Virus record (IMG/VR): IMGVR_UViG_3300014205_000225
Coordinates: 2,826 to 66,825 of that record
Source: a virus
DNA: 64,000 nt
Strand: one strand, 5' to 3'
The position numbers and the translations under genes are program-made. Below the pieces are notes generated by a model. It worked only from the letters and a program-made list of their open reading frames with translations, ran no database searches and had not been told where the DNA came from. Shown piece after piece: positions 1,919 to 48,795 of this stretch; the first letter of the stretch is position 1, and every line of letters starts with the position of its first letter.

Positions 1919-3679
1919 TCATGCATTCCTCCGTTTTATGCTTTGTAAGAGTTGGACCATTCCGGCTTCCATTGCACAGTCTTTTCCATCAATAATCGCG
2001 TCAATTACCTGTCTTTTTTCTTCTTGCGAGGCTAGTATATCCTCTTCAATGGTATCTCGGGCAACAAGATACCAAGCCGTTGCCCCATGCGGATCGCTGA
2101 TCCTACCGTAGCAGCGTTCTTCTGCCTGTTCATGGTCTTTTGGGCTATCCCAAAATTCCAGGAAGCAAACATCTTGCGCGGCGGTAAGGGTCAAGGCTTC
2201 TTTAGCAGCCAAGGTGCCCAGGAAAACCCGTGTATCGTTGTGCCTGTATTCCCGGCAAGCCCCTGGGTCAATGTCGTGCTTATCCTTTTTAACCCCGCAT
2301 TTTGCACAAGCCTGAAACCTTGTTTCAGCGTCCCTTTTTTGAATGTCTGTGCAACTGCCATCCACAACTACCATTGATTCTGGTTTAAATGCCTGCTTCA
2401 TTTCAGAGATGGTTTCTTTGTGATGGGCAAACAGAATGAGCTTTTCTTCCCCATCCAAAAAATCCTCCACCCATTGCAGGCATTTCTTCATCTTGAGTTT
2501 TACTACTAATTGTTTCAGCTTATTGATGCGCACTAAGGCCTCCGCCCGTTGTGCGCTTGTCAAGGAAGACGGGTCTTTGTCCTCCAACCAACTAAGAAAA
2601 TCCCTGTCTGCGTATCGGTACTCTTTCATTTCCTTTGCACTAAACTCCAGATACACCGTAGTTCGTGTCATCTTTGGTAAGTCCGGCAGTACCTCAGCCT
2701 TTGTACGGCGAAGGAGAACCTTGTGTTTAGTAAGCACTTCATGAAACTCCTTCTGGTTACTGGCCCCGTCAAAATCCCAGCCAAAAAATCCCTTTTTAGC
2801 TCCACAGTATTTGATGGCGAATGGGAAAAATGCAGGGAAAATGTCGGGGCGCACAAGATGCAGCATGGGGTAAAAGTTCTTCGGGCGATGTTTTATCGGG
2901 GTACCGCTGCTTCCGATAACATGCGGCACCTTCCCAGCGAGTTGATAAACCGCCTGGGTTCTGCTGCTGGTCATCTCTTGCAGATATTGACATTCATCAA
3001 TCAAAATAGCCTGGGGGTCTATTTTCTTAATATCCGGTCGCAGATGTGTTGCTACCCCCCGGCCTTTACAAGCCGGGCATTTTTTTAGGTCGGCCCCCTT
3101 CTTCACTTTCTTTTTTCCTTTACACTTGGGGCATGGTTCATTGTAAAACAGTATATCATAGTTTATGATATGGATGTCCGCTTCTTCGAGCACGTTTCCA
3201 CGCCGCCATTCTCCGCTTATTACAGAAACCCGGCCATTTGGCACGATGTACTTGGCTTCGTTGTAATACCCCCATTTGGCATTGCTAGGGCACACAACCA
3301 CGGCTGGGCGCACGTCTGGCCTGTATTGTAGCCAAGCCAGTTTGGTAGCAGTTTTCCCCAAACCCTGCTGATCCCCGAGAATGGTTCTCCCGTCCGCTGC
3401 TTCTATGTGCTCTACCCCTAAAATCTGATACGGCTTTAGGGGGCGTTTGATCCCGTTTATTTTTATTGCGCTGGGGCGCCCCACCTTTTTAACCTGAGCA
3501 GGTACGGAAAACCCCCATGCCGTGAGCTTTTCCACGCTCTCCAGGCAATAGGGGGCCGTCCACATTTTCTGGCCCTGGTCCCACCGTCTTCCAGAAAGCG
3601 TTTTTACCTGTGCAATGGTTTTTGGGTCGTATGGAAACGATATAAACATCGAATTTCCATCAATGCGTACTTTTTTCAT
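1919..3679 (-). CDS. SNF2-family (SMARCAL1/HARP-like) helicase
   Basis: N-terminal HARP-like FPYDPKTI...RRWD, GLGKT Walker A, DECQ, SGTP, QAEER motifs. Confidence 0.9.
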   Translation of the reverse strand: MKKVRIDGNSMFISFPYDPKTIAQVKTLSGRRWDQGQKMWTAPYCLESVEKLTAWGFSVPAQVKKVGRPSAIKINGIKRPLKPYQILGVEHIEAADGRTILGDQQGLGKTATKLAWLQYRPDVRPAVVVCPSNAKWGYYNEAKYIVPNGRVSVISGEWRRGNVLEEADIHIINYDILFYNEPCPKCKGKKKVKKGADLKKCPACKGRGVATHLRPDIKKIDPQAILIDECQYLQEMTSSRTQAVYQLAGKVPHVIGSSGTPIKHRPKNFYPMLHLVRPDIFPAFFPFAIKYCGAKKGFFGWDFDGASNQKEFHEVLTKHKVLLRRTKAEVLPDLPKMTRTTVYLEFSAKEMKEYRYADRDFLSWLEDKDPSSLTSAQRAEALVRINKLKQLVVKLKMKKCLQWVEDFLDGEEKLILFAHHKETISEMKQAFKPESMVVVDGSCTDIQKRDAETRFQACAKCGVKKDKHDIDPGACREYRHNDTRVFLGTLAAKEALTLTAAQDVCFLEFWDSPKDHEQAEERCYGRISDPHGATAWYLVARDTIEEDILASQEEKRQVIDAIIDGKDCAMEAGMVQLLQSIKRRNA

Positions 3680-3888
3680 ACCTGTACCCCGAAAACTCCT
3701 ATCGAAGCGGTACATACCCCGTACAAAACTTTCTGGGCATACCGCTTTCTTGTTAAAGGATTCGATACCAAAGATGGGTCTTCGTATTTTAAGATGCTCG
3801 CTGAAATGAGTGCTTCAACCGGGAGGGCGTCAAAATACAGCTCCTCCCCAGTTTCCAGATTTAATACCATTGTCATTTTAGTTTTCAT
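3676..3888 (-). CDS. hypothetical protein
   Basis: ORF with RBS, ATGA overlap with helicase. Confidence 0.6.
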   Translation of the reverse strand: MKTKMTMVLNLETGEELYFDALPVEALISASILKYEDPSLVSNPLTRKRYAQKVLYGVCTASIGVFGVQV

Positions 3889-45254: not shown

Positions 45255-46342
45255 TATTTGGGTTTTCGGTCTAGCCGCAAAGAGGCTTCTATTTCGCTCC
45301 AGGCTTCCCCGGTTATTTTCCTCAACTCCTTTTCCAAGTGGCCATCTTCAATGGTGCGGATAAGTTTTTCCCTGGTACAACTCAGGTCAAAATGAGTGGC
45401 ATTGATTTTTTGCCCCGTCTTCGTCCAATACCCCTCACTCTGTAGAAAGTCTATGCAACTTCCTATATCGTCGATACCGTAGTCGTAGAAAATGGGTAGC
45501 GTTGTATCTCGACGTTTCCCCGTGATTTTGTTTTTGGTTGTCTTGAGTATGGCGTCTACCCCAACAACCCGCTCCCGTTTTTTGTGCGTTTTGCCTATTG
45601 CCGCCCATACCTCATGGGTTGCATAAAACTTGAGGGCGCGCCCCCCGGCCCGCGTTTTTTTGCTAAAGCTCATGGGGTCGATATTGTCGCGGGTTTGGCT
45701 GATAATAATAAGCAGGGAGTTTGTCTTGCTAATTTTTCGAATGATAAGGCGGAACAATTCACTCATCCCTTTTGCCTTTGTCATTCCATAGCTGCCTTTT
45801 ATATCCTTGCCCTTTGCCCGAGCCATTCGCTGTTCCTCGTACTTGTTTATTTCCTCTTCACTGCCAATGGAATCGAGGCTGTCAAGTACATAGATAAACG
45901 GGCGCCCGTCGTCCAGAGCATCGTGGACGTTGTCGCAAAAAGCCTGCACAGTGTCGCTGGCAGGCTTGGCGGTGTCCTGGTTTGGTGGTTCGATTCGGTC
46001 AGCAACCTTATCCCCAAATAGATAAGGAATGTCAAAGGCGCAGGCTGCTTCGGCATCGTCATAGATAAAGCGGTAGTCCTTAAACCGTTTCAGCATGGCT
46101 GCTTCGGCAAAGGCTGTCAGGGCAAGAAATGTTTTGCCGCTGGAGCTGTCCCCGATAATGTTTGCCATTGTGCCCAAGGCGTACCCACCGTCAGCGCGGT
46201 CACTCAGCATCAAGTTAAACAATGTGCTCCCAGTAGGCAAAAAACCGGAAGCATCCATAGGACGCGAGCTTCGTTCTTTTGGCTCTTCTACGGAAGCGTT
46301 AATTTGTTCGCCTATGTCAGACACATTATTTTTTCGGGCCAT
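45251..46342 (-). CDS. recA: RecA/UvsX-like recombinase
   Basis: GDSSSGKT, DAE, LDSLDS, ISQTRD, GGRALKFYA. Confidence 0.92.
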   Translation of the reverse strand: MARKNNVSDIGEQINASVEEPKERSSRPMDASGFLPTGSTLFNLMLSDRADGGYALGTMANIIGDSSSGKTFLALTAFAEAAMLKRFKDYRFIYDDAEAACAFDIPYLFGDKVADRIEPPNQDTAKPASDTVQAFCDNVHDALDDGRPFIYVLDSLDSIGSEEEINKYEEQRMARAKGKDIKGSYGMTKAKGMSELFRLIIRKISKTNSLLIIISQTRDNIDPMSFSKKTRAGGRALKFYATHEVWAAIGKTHKKRERVVGVDAILKTTKNKITGKRRDTTLPIFYDYGIDDIGSCIDFLQSEGYWTKTGQKINATHFDLSCTREKLIRTIEDGHLEKELRKITGEAWSEIEASLRLDRKPKY

Positions 46343-46526
46343 TTTCCAGAAACTCCTCAAGAAGTTTTTTGTTCACATTCCAACGGCTACCTTCACCAAG
46401 TGGTTGGTATCCGAGGTTATTCGCCTTAATCCATTTGATCATGGTGGCATATACACAATGAATACCTTTCTTTTTGGCAAGCTCTAAAGCGGTCGGAACA
46501 CCTATCATCTCTACTTGGTCATTCAT
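46326..46526 (-). CDS. small HTH (excisionase-like) DNA-binding protein
   Basis: ATMIKWIK...GSRWNVNK. Confidence 0.6.
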   Translation of the reverse strand: MNDQVEMIGVPTALELAKKKGIHCVYATMIKWIKANNLGYQPLGEGSRWNVNKKLLEEFLENGPKK

Positions 46527-46546
46527 TGCGGTGTCCTTTAGTAAAA

Positions 46547-46636
46547 GCCTGGGCCGGTGCTACAAGGATAGATGCTTCCAACCACTCTCTATCACCCTTT
46601 GGGTAGGGTAGCTCCGTTTACTTTTCTTACCAAGGC
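46547..46636 (-). ncRNA. putative structured RNA motif, copy A (downstream of ssb)
   Basis: GCCTTGG-TAAGAAAAGTAAA-CGGAG...CACCG-GCCCAGGC; matches copy B. Confidence 0.55.
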
Positions 46637-46642
46637 AGGTCG

Positions 46643-47755
46643 TTATGCGCGGCGGCGTCCACCACGTTCTTCGCGTTTCAGCCTGTCTTTTTCATCGGCG
46701 CACTCTTCCCACTGCTTGCATTTGTCACATTCGTCATGGGCGTCGTTGTCTTTACCCCATTTGAACCCATTAGGGCATTTCTCGGAAGAGTCTTCGTCTT
46801 CGTCCTGGCCCTTGCGATTTTTCTGGGGTGCCTGTTTGCGGCCACGAGGGGCGGGTTTTTCATCTTCCGGCTCTTCCTCCGGCTCTTCTGGCTCTTCCCA
46901 CGGTTCCTCCGGTTCCTCTTCCTCAACAACCCGGCGGCGGCGCGCAGGTGTTTCTTCCTTGTTGGTATTGCGACGCCGTGGGGCTTCTTCTTCCGCGTCA
47001 TCGTCCTTCTCGTCATCGTCGTCGTCTTGTACAACGTCTGTACCGAACAAAATGGCCTTCAGTTGTTCTGCTGTCAAGATGTTGAGCGCCTTGTCCAAGT
47101 CAACCGCCTTGTCCAAGTATTTGGGGCTCAGGTCCTCCCGATCCACAAAGTCAATGCGCTGTGCTTCGAGGAAGGCGTTTTTGCCGAGTTTCTTTTCTCC
47201 AAAACGAACTTTCAGCGTGTACCCGCCTTTAAGCATGGGAAAGTCAAGGTACTGTTCGTCGACGTTGCGCAATTCATCTTCAATAATGCGCCCAAAGAGG
47301 TAGCTGCTCATGTCGAAAACATACTGCTTCCCATTGATAAGCACGTTATACAGTTCCCGTTCGCTGGGCTTGAGAGCCTTAACAACATCCGGGTCCGTGT
47401 TTTTGTCCTTGCTGAGAAGTGCGTATTCCGCGCAGATGGGGCACGGCTTACCGATGCTTTTGAGGCAAACGTACCGCTTATCTTCGTCGCCGATATTGCG
47501 GTGAATCCAGTAAATACGGCGGTGCCATTCTTCCCCGGCTTTTACCCCGTCCGGATTGCGGCTTTCGCTCACAATGTAGGGGAAAATGTCAATTTCGTAG
47601 GTACCTTTTTCCGGGCTGAAAAACTCAATGCCGTCCGGAAGGCGTACTGTACCGCCCCCGGTGTTTTCGCTCTTGCGCTCTTCCAAGCGTTGGCGCATAC
47701 GGTCGCGCATACTCCCGCCGGAACTTCTTTCTTCTTTCTTTCCAACTCGAGCCAT
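46643..47755 (-). CDS. single-stranded DNA-binding protein (gp32-like)
   Basis: HRNIG...VCLKSIGKPCPIC, ERELYNV, long acidic tail. Confidence 0.8.
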   Translation of the reverse strand: MARVGKKEERSSGGSMRDRMRQRLEERKSENTGGGTVRLPDGIEFFSPEKGTYEIDIFPYIVSESRNPDGVKAGEEWHRRIYWIHRNIGDEDKRYVCLKSIGKPCPICAEYALLSKDKNTDPDVVKALKPSERELYNVLINGKQYVFDMSSYLFGRIIEDELRNVDEQYLDFPMLKGGYTLKVRFGEKKLGKNAFLEAQRIDFVDREDLSPKYLDKAVDLDKALNILTAEQLKAILFGTDVVQDDDDDEKDDDAEEEAPRRRNTNKEETPARRRRVVEEEEPEEPWEEPEEPEEEPEDEKPAPRGRKQAPQKNRKGQDEDEDSSEKCPNGFKWGKDNDAHDECDKCKQWEECADEKDRLKREERGGRRRA

Positions 47756-47788
47756 GTGTCTTTCTCCTTGGTTTGGGGTTGATTTAGT

Positions 47789-47862
47789 GCCGGGCCGGTG
47801 GGGTATCCGCTAGGGTTTTAGCACCGTCGCTGCCCATCCTCCGTTTACTTTCCTTACCCGGC
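47789..47862 (-). ncRNA. putative structured RNA motif, copy B (upstream of ssb)
   Basis: GCCGGG-TAAGGAAAGTAAA-CGGAG...CACCG-GCCCGGC. Confidence 0.55.
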
Positions 47863-47867
47863 TTTTC

Positions 47868-48044
47868 CTACTTGCGTTTCTGTCTGCTTTGTGTTCGGCG
47901 CAGTGTGTCAATTTGGTCGAGCATGTCTTCAAAAACCCCGTCTGCATCTTCCCCTTCGCACAGGTCTACTTCAATGTCTATGCGGGTGCTTTCATAATTT
48001 CCGTCATTGTACGTTTTTCCTAAACGGAGTGTCTTTAAATGGGC
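47868..48044 (-). pseudogene. protein-like reading frame with no canonical start at its 5' end (AHLKTLRLGKTYNDGNYESTRIDIEVD...)
   Basis: 59 codons directly after TAA TAG; NxGNYESxRID phage-like motif. Confidence 0.45.
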
Positions 48045-48047
48045 CTA

Positions 48048-48545
48048 TTATTCCCCAGGGTTCATGCGGCGACGCTGCCTTTTTCGCAGGTCGTCACGTT
48101 CTGCTGTTTTGATAGATTCCCGTGTTTCCTGGGAAACCTCGGTAACTTCGGGGGCGCTGAAATATTGCTGCCCGTGGAGGCGCACAAGGTTTTCCAGGGC
48201 GCACTTTCTTTGGTCAAAGGCCCGTACCGCCGCACCGAGCAACTCAACCAAATGGGATGCTTCGTGGACATTGTTCCGGAGTTTTCCGTAGGTCTCGTCC
48301 AATATGATTGCGTTACCGATACCGGCTTCCGTGACCTTGCCACCAAGCCCATACGACTCCGGGTCTTGTCTAATCGCAAGGTCAAGATTAGCCTTTTTAA
48401 CTTCCAGGGCTTCCTTGGCTTTATCAAGGGCGTATTTTGCTTCTGCGAGAGCCTCCGCGTACTTGAAAAACCGGCGTGGTTGGTCTACCCACTCCGTTTC
48501 AAGAGCATACATATCAATTTGCAGCTCTTCTTCATACTCGTTCAT
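48048..48545 (-). CDS. UvsY-like recombination mediator
   Basis: LQID..ALETEW..QP, KVTEAGI, AFDQRK.ALENLV. Confidence 0.7.
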   Translation of the reverse strand: MNEYEEELQIDMYALETEWVDQPRRFFKYAEALAEAKYALDKAKEALEVKKANLDLAIRQDPESYGLGGKVTEAGIGNAIILDETYGKLRNNVHEASHLVELLGAAVRAFDQRKCALENLVRLHGQQYFSAPEVTEVSQETRESIKTAERDDLRKRQRRRMNPGE

Positions 48546-48584
48546 AAAACCTCCCTTGGATATGTGTGTTTTGCTGTTAAATGT

Positions 48585-48612
48585 ATAGTAACACAGCAAA
48601 ATAAAAATACAA
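48585..48612 (-). promoter_or_regulatory. phage promoter motif copy 2 (TTGTAT-TTTTATTTT-GCTG-TGT-TACTAT)
   Basis: shared layout; upstream of uvsY/ssb/recA. Confidence 0.65.
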
Positions 48613-48636
48613 CATAAAAATATAAAAAACAATGAA

Positions 48637-48795
48637 TTATACCTTGCCAGTTATCTGTATTTCAGCAATTTGCGCATCCCGTACCCCGCCCAGGGCGTAA
48701 CTTTCGTTCCATTCAATTTCGACAGTTTCTATTAAAATGCCGGTTTCTTCCTGCACTTTCATAAGGGCGTCTCGTAACACATCGTAGACTGTCAT
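48637..48795 (-). CDS. hypothetical protein (MTVYDVLRDAL...)
   Basis: AGGAGG RBS; own translation, 52 aa. Confidence 0.6.
   Translation of the reverse strand: MTVYDVLRDALMKVQEETGILIETVEIEWNESYALGGVRDAQIAEIQITGKV

Follow-up and report, generated by a model that had tools for sequence, protein, structure and literature searches.

A candidate family of small folded phage RNAs found in tRNA arrays and on both flanks of a gp32-like gene

What kind of element is found on both sides of a gene for a putative single-stranded-DNA-binding protein (ssb), and what would it do there? This question is raised by a stretch of 64,000 nucleotides (nt) of virus DNA, positions 2,826 to 66,825 of the IMG/VR record IMGVR_UViG_3300014205_000225, which is called the window in the following. 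The first-pass annotation, made from the letters of the window alone, described a conserved structured RNA-like motif on both flanks of ssb and proposed a cis-acting RNA that excises or stabilizes the ssb mRNA, mediates autoregulation or cleaves itself. As judged from sequence comparison, the two flanking stretches are members of a hitherto uncatalogued family of phage RNAs that are small and folded. The family is normally present in one copy per phage, usually among transfer RNA (tRNA) genes.

Two elements at the ssb gene

The two elements, termed copy A and copy B, were located by reading of the sequence and by searching with a covariance model (R1), which was built from 22 sequences of other phages (alignment A2). 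Both approaches agree on a motif on either flank of ssb on the minus strand, where it had been annotated. The features of the locus, with stems numbered P1 to P4, are as follows:

46547-46636, minus strand: copy A, a divergent copy, 6 nt past the ssb stop codon (46643-46645)
46617-46629, minus strand: J1/2 of copy A, U followed by AAGAAAAGUAAA
46643-47755, minus strand: gene for a gp32-like single-stranded-DNA-binding protein of 370 amino acids (aa), the open reading frame (ORF) between the two copies
47789-47862, minus strand: copy B, a canonical member, with a small ORF on its upstream side and the ssb start codon (47755) on its downstream side
47844-47856, minus strand: J1/2 of copy B, U (pairing with G47795) followed by the one-sided 12-nt purine strand AAGGAAAGUAAA
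47833-47843, minus strand: P2 5' strand CGGAG-G of copy B, AU bulge and GGG (P3 5' strand GG and loop G)
47808-47832, minus strand: variable arm P4 of copy B (CA + GCGAC...CUAGC + G), dispensable in the family
47796-47807, minus strand: 3' core of copy B, GAUACC-C-CACCG (loop GAUA, P3 3' strand CC, P2 3' strand)

In the R1 search of the window, copy B was matched at 47787-47864 with 77.5 bits (E 2e-19) and copy A at 46546-46637 with 36.6 bits (E 8e-8), the latter with 50 nt where the head should be. The next-best match reached 13.2 bits (E 0.3), and in the whole virus record of 66.8 kilobases (kb) the two copies are the only R1 matches. The 16-mer TAAGRAAAGTAAACGG occurs exactly twice in the window, at 46614-46629 and at 47841-47856, both on the minus strand.

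Read from 47862 down to 47789, copy B has the order GCCGGG-U-AAGGAAAGUAAA-CGGAGG-AU-GGG-CAGCGACGGUGCUAAAACCCUAGCG-GAUA-CC-C-CACCG-G-CCCGGC, with CAGCGACGGUGCUAAAACCCUAGCG as the variable part. It is placed 5 nt past the stop codon of the small upstream ORF (47868-47870) and 33 nt ahead of the ssb ATG. The order of copy A, from 46636 down to 46547, is GCCUUGG-U-AAGAAAAGUAAA-CGGAGC-(UAC...two hairpins...GUA)-G-CACCG-G-CCCAGGC. As described in the first-pass annotation, the closing stems (P1) of the two copies differ yet largely pair: that of copy B consists of 6 base pairs (bp; G47862-G47857 with C47794-C47789) and the additional pair U47856.G47795, that of copy A of seven positions (46636-46630 with 46553-46547) with one U.C mismatch at 46632/46551, followed by the closing pair U46629.G46554. 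The purine strand, annotated as UAAGRAAAGUAAA, and the CGG-A-G/C-A-CCG stem could likewise be confirmed as common to both copies, the stem in the full form CGG-A-G-N / N'-C-A-CCG. Copy A thus retains P1, J1/2 (UAAGAAAAGUAAA) and CGGAG/CACCG, and its AU-GGG...GAUACC head is swapped for an extended stem (CUAC/GUAG) with two hairpins.

An inner stem had also been annotated as covarying between the copies. This holds for the pair beside CGGAG only, which is C-G in copy A and G-C in copy B. The stem GAUA/UAUC given for copy B does not exist, as there is no UAUC in this copy; beyond the pair beside CGGAG, copy A goes on with UAC/GUA and copy B has the family core AU-GGG...GAUACC.

Single-sequence folding energies of the two copies are unremarkable in comparison with shuffled sequences (z -0.34 and -0.85). 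Since neither copy is more stable than its shuffles, folding energy by itself does not count as evidence for a structure; the proposed structure is backed by the comparison between sequences.

Directly before copy B, a stop-free frame of ~58 codons is found on the minus strand (47868-48044, ending at 47868-47870), which has no ATG, GTG or TTG start yielding at least 40 aa. A comparable small ORF with a basic tail ends at the ssb start in L163, the locus of a relative.

Family membership, fold and covariation

By blastn of the region against cultured phages, only copy B was matched, in Ralstonia phage RSP15, where the match sits in an unannotated gap of the tRNA cluster. R1 also matches Vibrio phage 1.121.O (68.6 bits), and further blastn searches against cultured phages gave nothing beyond these two. 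Microbacterium blastn matches (E 0.8) cover the variable region only, look like chance and were not accepted as members. Among 5,426 E. coli genomes, blastn with copy B gave no match even at E up to 10.

The 16-mer is present in 47 IMG/VR stretches, and 27 of these hold the whole motif; the remaining 20 are bare 16-mers, about the chance level by our own estimate. Copy A alone among the exact 16-mer matches combines a closing stem with a non-canonical interior. A second pattern, anchored on CGGAG-N-AUGGG...AUACC-N-CACCG with the purine strand left free, was found in 102 viral stretches and in 18 stretches of prokaryote genome contigs. The whole motif could be identified in 3 of the 18 (L141, Variovorax; L148, Lysinibacter; L153, a Berkelbacteria-labelled contig of a metagenome-assembled genome), and we estimate that the other 15 correspond to the chance expectation for the pattern in 596 gigabases. 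R1 matches 94 of 99 fetched loci, once in each.

In total, the family extends over about 100 uncultivated phage contigs and the two cultured phages. Its members, 56-197 nt in size and with a single small core, come from Ralstonia and Vibrio phages and from Variovorax, Lysinibacter and Berkelbacteria-labelled contigs. Besides the element, the Variovorax and Lysinibacter contigs carry tRNA arrays. Within 8 kb, the Variovorax sp. contig has 27 tRNAs on the same strand and represents a tRNA array unit or a prophage; its element has a 60-nt insertion and lies 5 nt past tRNA-Ala and 11 nt before tRNA-Cys.

The first-pass annotation had recognized no known riboswitch, ribozyme or terminator, which is in agreement with the Rfam check, as no Rfam 15 model matches the element. 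There are no matches at the gathering score in the whole window, and between 46300 and 48100 at E up to 10 only mir-154 and sR44 appear, at chance level and overlapping neither copy. Likewise, four other member loci gave nothing over the element at E up to 5. The motif was not found by literal-sequence (15-mers) and word searches of the literature; it may be among the 10,006 unnamed candidates of Fremin et al.

The consensus consists, from 5' to 3', of P1 (the last two pairs usually G-C), a closing U.G, AAGGAAAG, (U/C)AAA, P2, an AU bulge, P3, a loop and P4. P2 has the consensus C-G, G-C, G-C, A.A, G-C, N-N', P3 is GG/CC with the internal loop G-N-A / R-G-A-U-A, and P4 is a variable hairpin; the core comprises ~36 near-invariant nucleotides. 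In 58 members P1 consists of 4-15 contiguous pairs (mode 6) and is followed on the 3' side by A/U-rich sequence, in which neither CCA nor another conserved sequence is found. Judging from the zero-nucleotide 3' junction alone, P1 is probably stacked on P2. The minimal member (L023) has 56 nt in all and 8 nt in place of the P4 hairpin, so P4 is dispensable.

That the motif is a conserved structured RNA which covaries in relatives was borne out by the covariance model and the alignments. In alignment A2, 95.2% of the cells are paired, compared with 32-51% for slid partners, 71 double-sided changes are found versus 23.5 in shuffles, and the covariation score was reached by none of 500 shuffles. 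In alignment A3 (83 distinct sequences) 94.1% of the cells are paired, double-sided changes occur in 7 of 8 P1 pairs, and the N-N' pair is A-U in 40, G-C in 26 and C-G in 16 sequences; it is P1 and the N/N' pair that covary. RNAalifold, which was run independently, recovers 14 of 15 proposed pairs. In L163, which was found via its protein, the first P2 pair is changed from C-G to A-U. Mutual information on the family alignment adds P4 base pairs (columns 62/96 and 61/97) and shows no pseudoknot covariation, with the purine strand too invariant to test.

The invariant P2 and P3 pairs are not testable by covariation, and parts of the core are fixed by the search patterns. The purine strand is near-invariant even in members found by the pattern leaving it free, and positions which the pattern does not specify are conserved nevertheless, namely the G of GAUACC (78/80) and the A after GGG-N (70/82).

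The P1 closing pair is U.G in 55 of 75 distinct sequences; in the column count of A3 (columns 9/181) it is U.G in 52, C-G in 8 and U-A in 1. The closing U.G would be C.A on the other strand, which speaks for an RNA and for the strand assigned to it. At the same columns, A is found on both sides in 10 sequences; the recurrence of A.A as a unit suggests a tolerated non-Watson-Crick alternative.

In a subclass, one or two extra hairpins are inserted exactly between AAGGAAAG and NAAA. In the inserted hairpins (L071, L077, L098, L103, L123 and L135; also L057, L065, L097 and L104), 6-nt self-complementary loops are frequent (UAAUUA, UGAUCA, UUGCAA, UGUACA, UCUAGA), and the first hairpin often has a GACG tetraloop. 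A 6-nt palindrome is present in 7 of 30 predicted hairpin loops from 15 members, with 1.1 expected and none of 1000 shuffles reaching 7. These loops could serve loop-loop dimerization or could simply be part of perfect DNA palindromes.

Genomic placement and candidate functions

Placement was counted for 60 distinct members with a clearly defined P1. tRNAs are present in 36 of these loci, with 423 tRNAs on the strand of the element and none on the opposite strand. In 22 of the 60 members the distance to a tRNA is at most 30 nt, often with the element in a tRNA-sized slot; in four loci (L009, L011, L035, L126) it lies 4 nt past tRNA-Leu and 8 nt ahead of tRNA-Asp. There is no fixed side or distance between element and tRNAs. 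The functional kind of an orphan small RNA of phage tRNA arrays suits the family but not the window, in whose 64 kb ARAGORN finds no tRNA. Searched over their full length, 15 other phage records gave exactly one R1 match apiece; among them are the complete RSP15 genome and eight virus records (102-368 kb) with a completeness of 90% or more. Two matches are found in no record but that of the window (66.8 kb, 91% complete), whose second copy is without the head.

The family, its fold, placement, strand and copy number are established by these data. From them we infer, tentatively and short of calling it probable, a gene-like, trans-acting small RNA that would be excised from long transcripts, would exist as a free RNA and would act on a conserved partner. 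The element would then encode a compactly folded phage RNA of small size (about 60-130 nt), usually with one functional copy, which would be transcribed inside long multi-gene transcripts (tRNA arrays where present, otherwise replication or packaging operons) and released by the host nucleases that mature the neighboring tRNAs and mRNAs. P1, variable in length, would stack on the invariant P2 (CGG-A-G-N / N'-C-A-CCG), and the purine strand AAGGAAAGUAAA, the AU bulge, P3 (GG/CC) and the internal loop G-N-A / R-G-A-U-A would pack onto this stack to form a sequence-specific core, which would bind a partner conserved across very different hosts. In the phage of the window, excising both elements would at the same time separate ssb from the rest of the mRNA on either side.

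Some member loci hold further RNA genes. ARAGORN calls a permuted transfer-messenger RNA (tag ANDTQFALVA) at 4291-4711 of L035, within a member tRNA array, and a CUA-anticodon (amber-reading) tRNA at 2275-2350 of L041, also in a member array. In L033, which belongs to a marine 'UUGGUGG' clade, the element lies by a 296-aa gene in ~1.2 kb (2700-3880) without a substantial ORF; this stretch may hold additional RNA genes.

The occupation of tRNA-sized slots in the arrays would also fit a non-canonical tRNA, or the element might be a signal at the DNA level (origin, recombination site, protein-binding palindrome), both of which we regard as very improbable. In 22 loci, the element is not among the ARAGORN calls, and RF00005, the Rfam model for tRNA, matches the adjoining tRNAs and not the element. 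P4 carries tetraloops or is absent and therefore offers no anticodon loop; by eye, some P4 loops read as 7-nt anticodon loops, but many members have a tetraloop or no P4, so this likeness was discarded. A tRNA-like minihelix (7-bp acceptor, discriminator, CCA, T-arm) was rejected as well, given the variable P1 of 4-15 pairs, which is not followed by CCA, and the lack of a T-loop sequence. A signal in the DNA is further disfavored by the U.G pair that closes P1 and by the strict strand bias, both of which point to RNA. The invariant AUG was also considered as a start codon and dismissed by eye, because the lengths of the variable region are not multiples of three.

In the loci without tRNAs, the element follows a gp32-like gene in L044 and large terminase genes in L064 and L100, precedes small terminase genes in L062, L079 and L127 and a primase-polymerase gene in L084, and adjoins clamp loaders in L083 and L109. 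As the neighbors, tRNAs included, belong to no one functional class and neither copy has a terminator-like site beside it on the minus strand, a riboswitch is not supported. The tight fit between same-strand ORFs in tRNA-less phages, with space left for the next ribosome-binding site, would be explained by a cis-acting intercistronic element which, like the RNase III sites of T7, determines where mRNAs end and how stable they are, through recognition by a nuclease or an RNA-binding protein of host or phage, and which yields no functional free RNA. The bracketing of one gene by two copies in the window and the place downstream of a gp32-like gene, which is kept in three phages with proteins 37-66% identical, fit this explanation too. 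However, operon punctuation signals recur, whereas the element is single-copy in genomes of 102-368 kb, the majority of members sit in untranslated tRNA arrays, and the conservation across phages of unrelated hosts exceeds the usual need of a nuclease entry site. We consider a cis-acting element unlikely. Due to the strand-specific pairing, the invariant core, the independence from neighbors, the strict single copy in large genomes and the home among tRNAs, themselves excised from long transcripts, a gene for a trans-acting small RNA is a better fit than an unspecific signal in cis.

A new class of small self-cleaving ribozyme, which would cut the long transcript at or inside the element, also has to be weighed; in arrays it would help to free tRNAs, and in the window it would excise the ssb mRNA with structured ends. 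Known small ribozymes combine an invariant junction core with variable peripheral stems. The element shows ~36 near-invariant junction nucleotides, variable or dispensable peripheral stems, a variable P1 and a minimum of 56 nt, and its distribution is phage-only and sporadic, between genes and beside tRNAs. A parallel is given by the hepatitis delta virus (HDV)-like theta ribozymes, which adjoin phage tRNAs (PMC10879173). Conversely, no Rfam ribozyme model matches even at E up to 10, so that the known self-cleaving classes (hammerhead, twister, twister-sister, pistol, hatchet, hairpin, HDV-like) were excluded. A general processing device would hardly be expected as one copy in a large genome whose fetched locus holds 10-27 tRNAs; side and distance relative to the tRNAs are not fixed, and no pseudoknot covariation is detectable. 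Self-cleavage is hence rated as doubtful, and the same grade is given to its boldest version, a single-copy ribozyme in many unrelated phages of which two copies cut the ssb mRNA out of the replication operon here. As an equally bold alternative, the RNA may be a trans-acting decoy or sponge that neutralizes a universally conserved host factor or defence nuclease. Parts of the element may resemble the K-turn, the sarcin-ricin loop, UAA/GAN, the T-loop, RNase P CR-I (AGGAAAGU), the 16S 790-loop or the anti-Shine-Dalgarno sequence.

The protein encoded between the copies has no match of its own in Pfam, PHROG or a PDB sequence search. Since 4 of its 68 homologues carry PF08804 (gp32), the homologue in L044 has a weak gp32 match (E 9e-4) and the neighboring genes are UvsY-like, RecA-like, RusA-like, SbcC-like, clamp-loader and family-A polymerase genes, the name ssb is reasonable and the protein is a distant gp32-type protein. 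Of the 2 loci that it recovered in a metagenome scan, one duplicates L001.

For a translational operator bound by this protein, comparable to the autoregulation of T4 gene 32 suggested in the first-pass annotation, speaks the position of both copies beside the gp32-like gene, with copy B 33 nt before the start codon. The special tie to ssb did not survive the comparison with relatives: among 80 viral loci with gp32-like relatives, the element is found only at L163 (protein 66% identical), where it is canonical, has a long P4, lies 8 nt downstream of the gene and has no upstream counterpart. L044 (37% identical) has it downstream only, and L001-L005 (41-49% identical) have no element. As the family occurs mainly in tRNA arrays or beside terminase, clamp-loader and primase-polymerase genes, an ssb-specific regulator is not supported, and we hold an operator to be highly unlikely. 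What may persist of the earlier proposal is a severing of the transcript on both sides of ssb, either by one of the two main alternatives (cis-acting element or ribozyme) or as a by-product of excision.

It follows from the downstream-only elements of L163 and L044 that, within this small clade, the element was placed downstream first. In its P4, copy B is similar to members from tRNA arrays, for instance L058 and L087. In the lineage of the window, the ancestral downstream copy A has lost its canonical head, and a canonical copy B is now present upstream, which amounts to a duplication with one copy remodeled. Close relatives in DNA runs retain both copies; among the differences listed, none falls inside copy B, and the flanking positions 47686, 47879 and 47904 differ. 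In a relative from run X3, position 46632 is changed, by which the U.C mismatch in P1 of copy A becomes G-C.

A U-rich run (UUUUAC, UUUUAG, UUAUUUU) follows P1 at 46537-46546 of the window, 2693-2700 of L163 and about 2205-2218 of L044. It is present only in these three copies downstream of a gp32-like gene, and array-borne members are without it. The U-rich runs are not called by a simple terminator scan. An intrinsic terminator is not supported, as the scan of 46000-48700 gives no minus-strand terminator-like site beside either copy.

Among the sequencing runs listed as holding the stretch, none is an RNA run. In the wastewater runs X13 and X15, both labelled RNA-Seq, contigs match only the 36-nt core (47823-47858 of the window). 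Because they diverge beyond this core, they come from other family members; no meaning was attached to the parts of the stretch left uncovered in these runs. In run X15 the summed contig depth is 7086 over the 36-nt core versus 0-17 elsewhere on the stretch, a weak hint of core abundance, as the run is labelled RNA-Seq but flagged as probably DNA.

Several points weigh against the trans-acting small RNA favored here. In 24 of the 60 member loci, no tRNA is present in the fetched locus and the element lies between same-strand ORFs; the tight gaps of about 8-35 nt to the ORFs (L044, L058, L059, L088, L109) resemble a cis intercistronic signal. A comparison of neighbor genes across contexts revealed no shared conserved partner gene. 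With 4-15 pairs in P1 and no CCA, the tRNA acceptor stem is not mimicked, and processing by RNase P or RNase Z is an assumption. Furthermore, since near relatives keep copy A and one repairs its P1, this copy is not simply decaying. Finally, the runs labelled RNA-Seq are flagged 'probably DNA' and are made of contigs.

Significance and comparison with known systems

That phage tRNA clusters contain unexplained small stable RNAs is known since the work on T4, and to these the element adds a sharply defined new family. Its members span phages of very different hosts and habitats, and such conservation points to catalysis or to the binding of a universal host component, either of which would be new phage-host RNA biology. 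As the two cultured phages RSP15 and 1.121.O carry the element, the family is directly testable.

Copy B, like the 5' pseudoknot of T4 gene 32 that is bound by gp32, is an RNA structure just upstream of a gp32-type gene. In contrast to this operator, the element is not conserved with the gene family and is mostly found away from ssb genes. Upstream of GP32 genes, Fremin et al. (2023; PMC10690425) report 12 candidate RNAs, and many of their other candidates are tRNA-like.

The HDV fold is a nested double pseudoknot and cleaves at its 5' end, directly behind a tRNA. The new element, in contrast, is a nested stem-junction with no detectable pseudoknot, no fixed tRNA position and no Rfam HDV match. 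The HDV-like theta ribozymes of gut phages are described as small conserved RNAs beside phage tRNA genes (PMC10879173).

GOLLD and ROOL are phage and prophage RNAs of unknown function which, according to PMC12286853, are 'often near tRNA islands' and assemble by kissing loops. The self-complementary hairpin loops of the insertion subclass are reminiscent of this. However, GOLLD and ROOL are ornate RNAs of 500-800+ nt with their own Rfam models, none of which matches, whereas the element has 56-197 nt and a single small core.

T4 rnaC (species 1) and rnaD (species 2) share with the family that they are orphan, non-decoding small RNAs in a tRNA cluster, on the tRNA strand and butting tRNAs. Homology was ruled out by searching T4 69000-74000 with R1 and filters off, where the best match (8.8 bits, E about 0.8) is not at rnaC or rnaD. 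In addition, the T-arm-like GGTTCGAATCC at the end of rnaC has no counterpart in the new family, and unlike the T4 RNAs the family occurs outside tRNA arrays too. Without being related to it by sequence or fold, the T4 species 1 and 2 RNAs, GOLLD and ROOL are the systems closest to the new family by placement.

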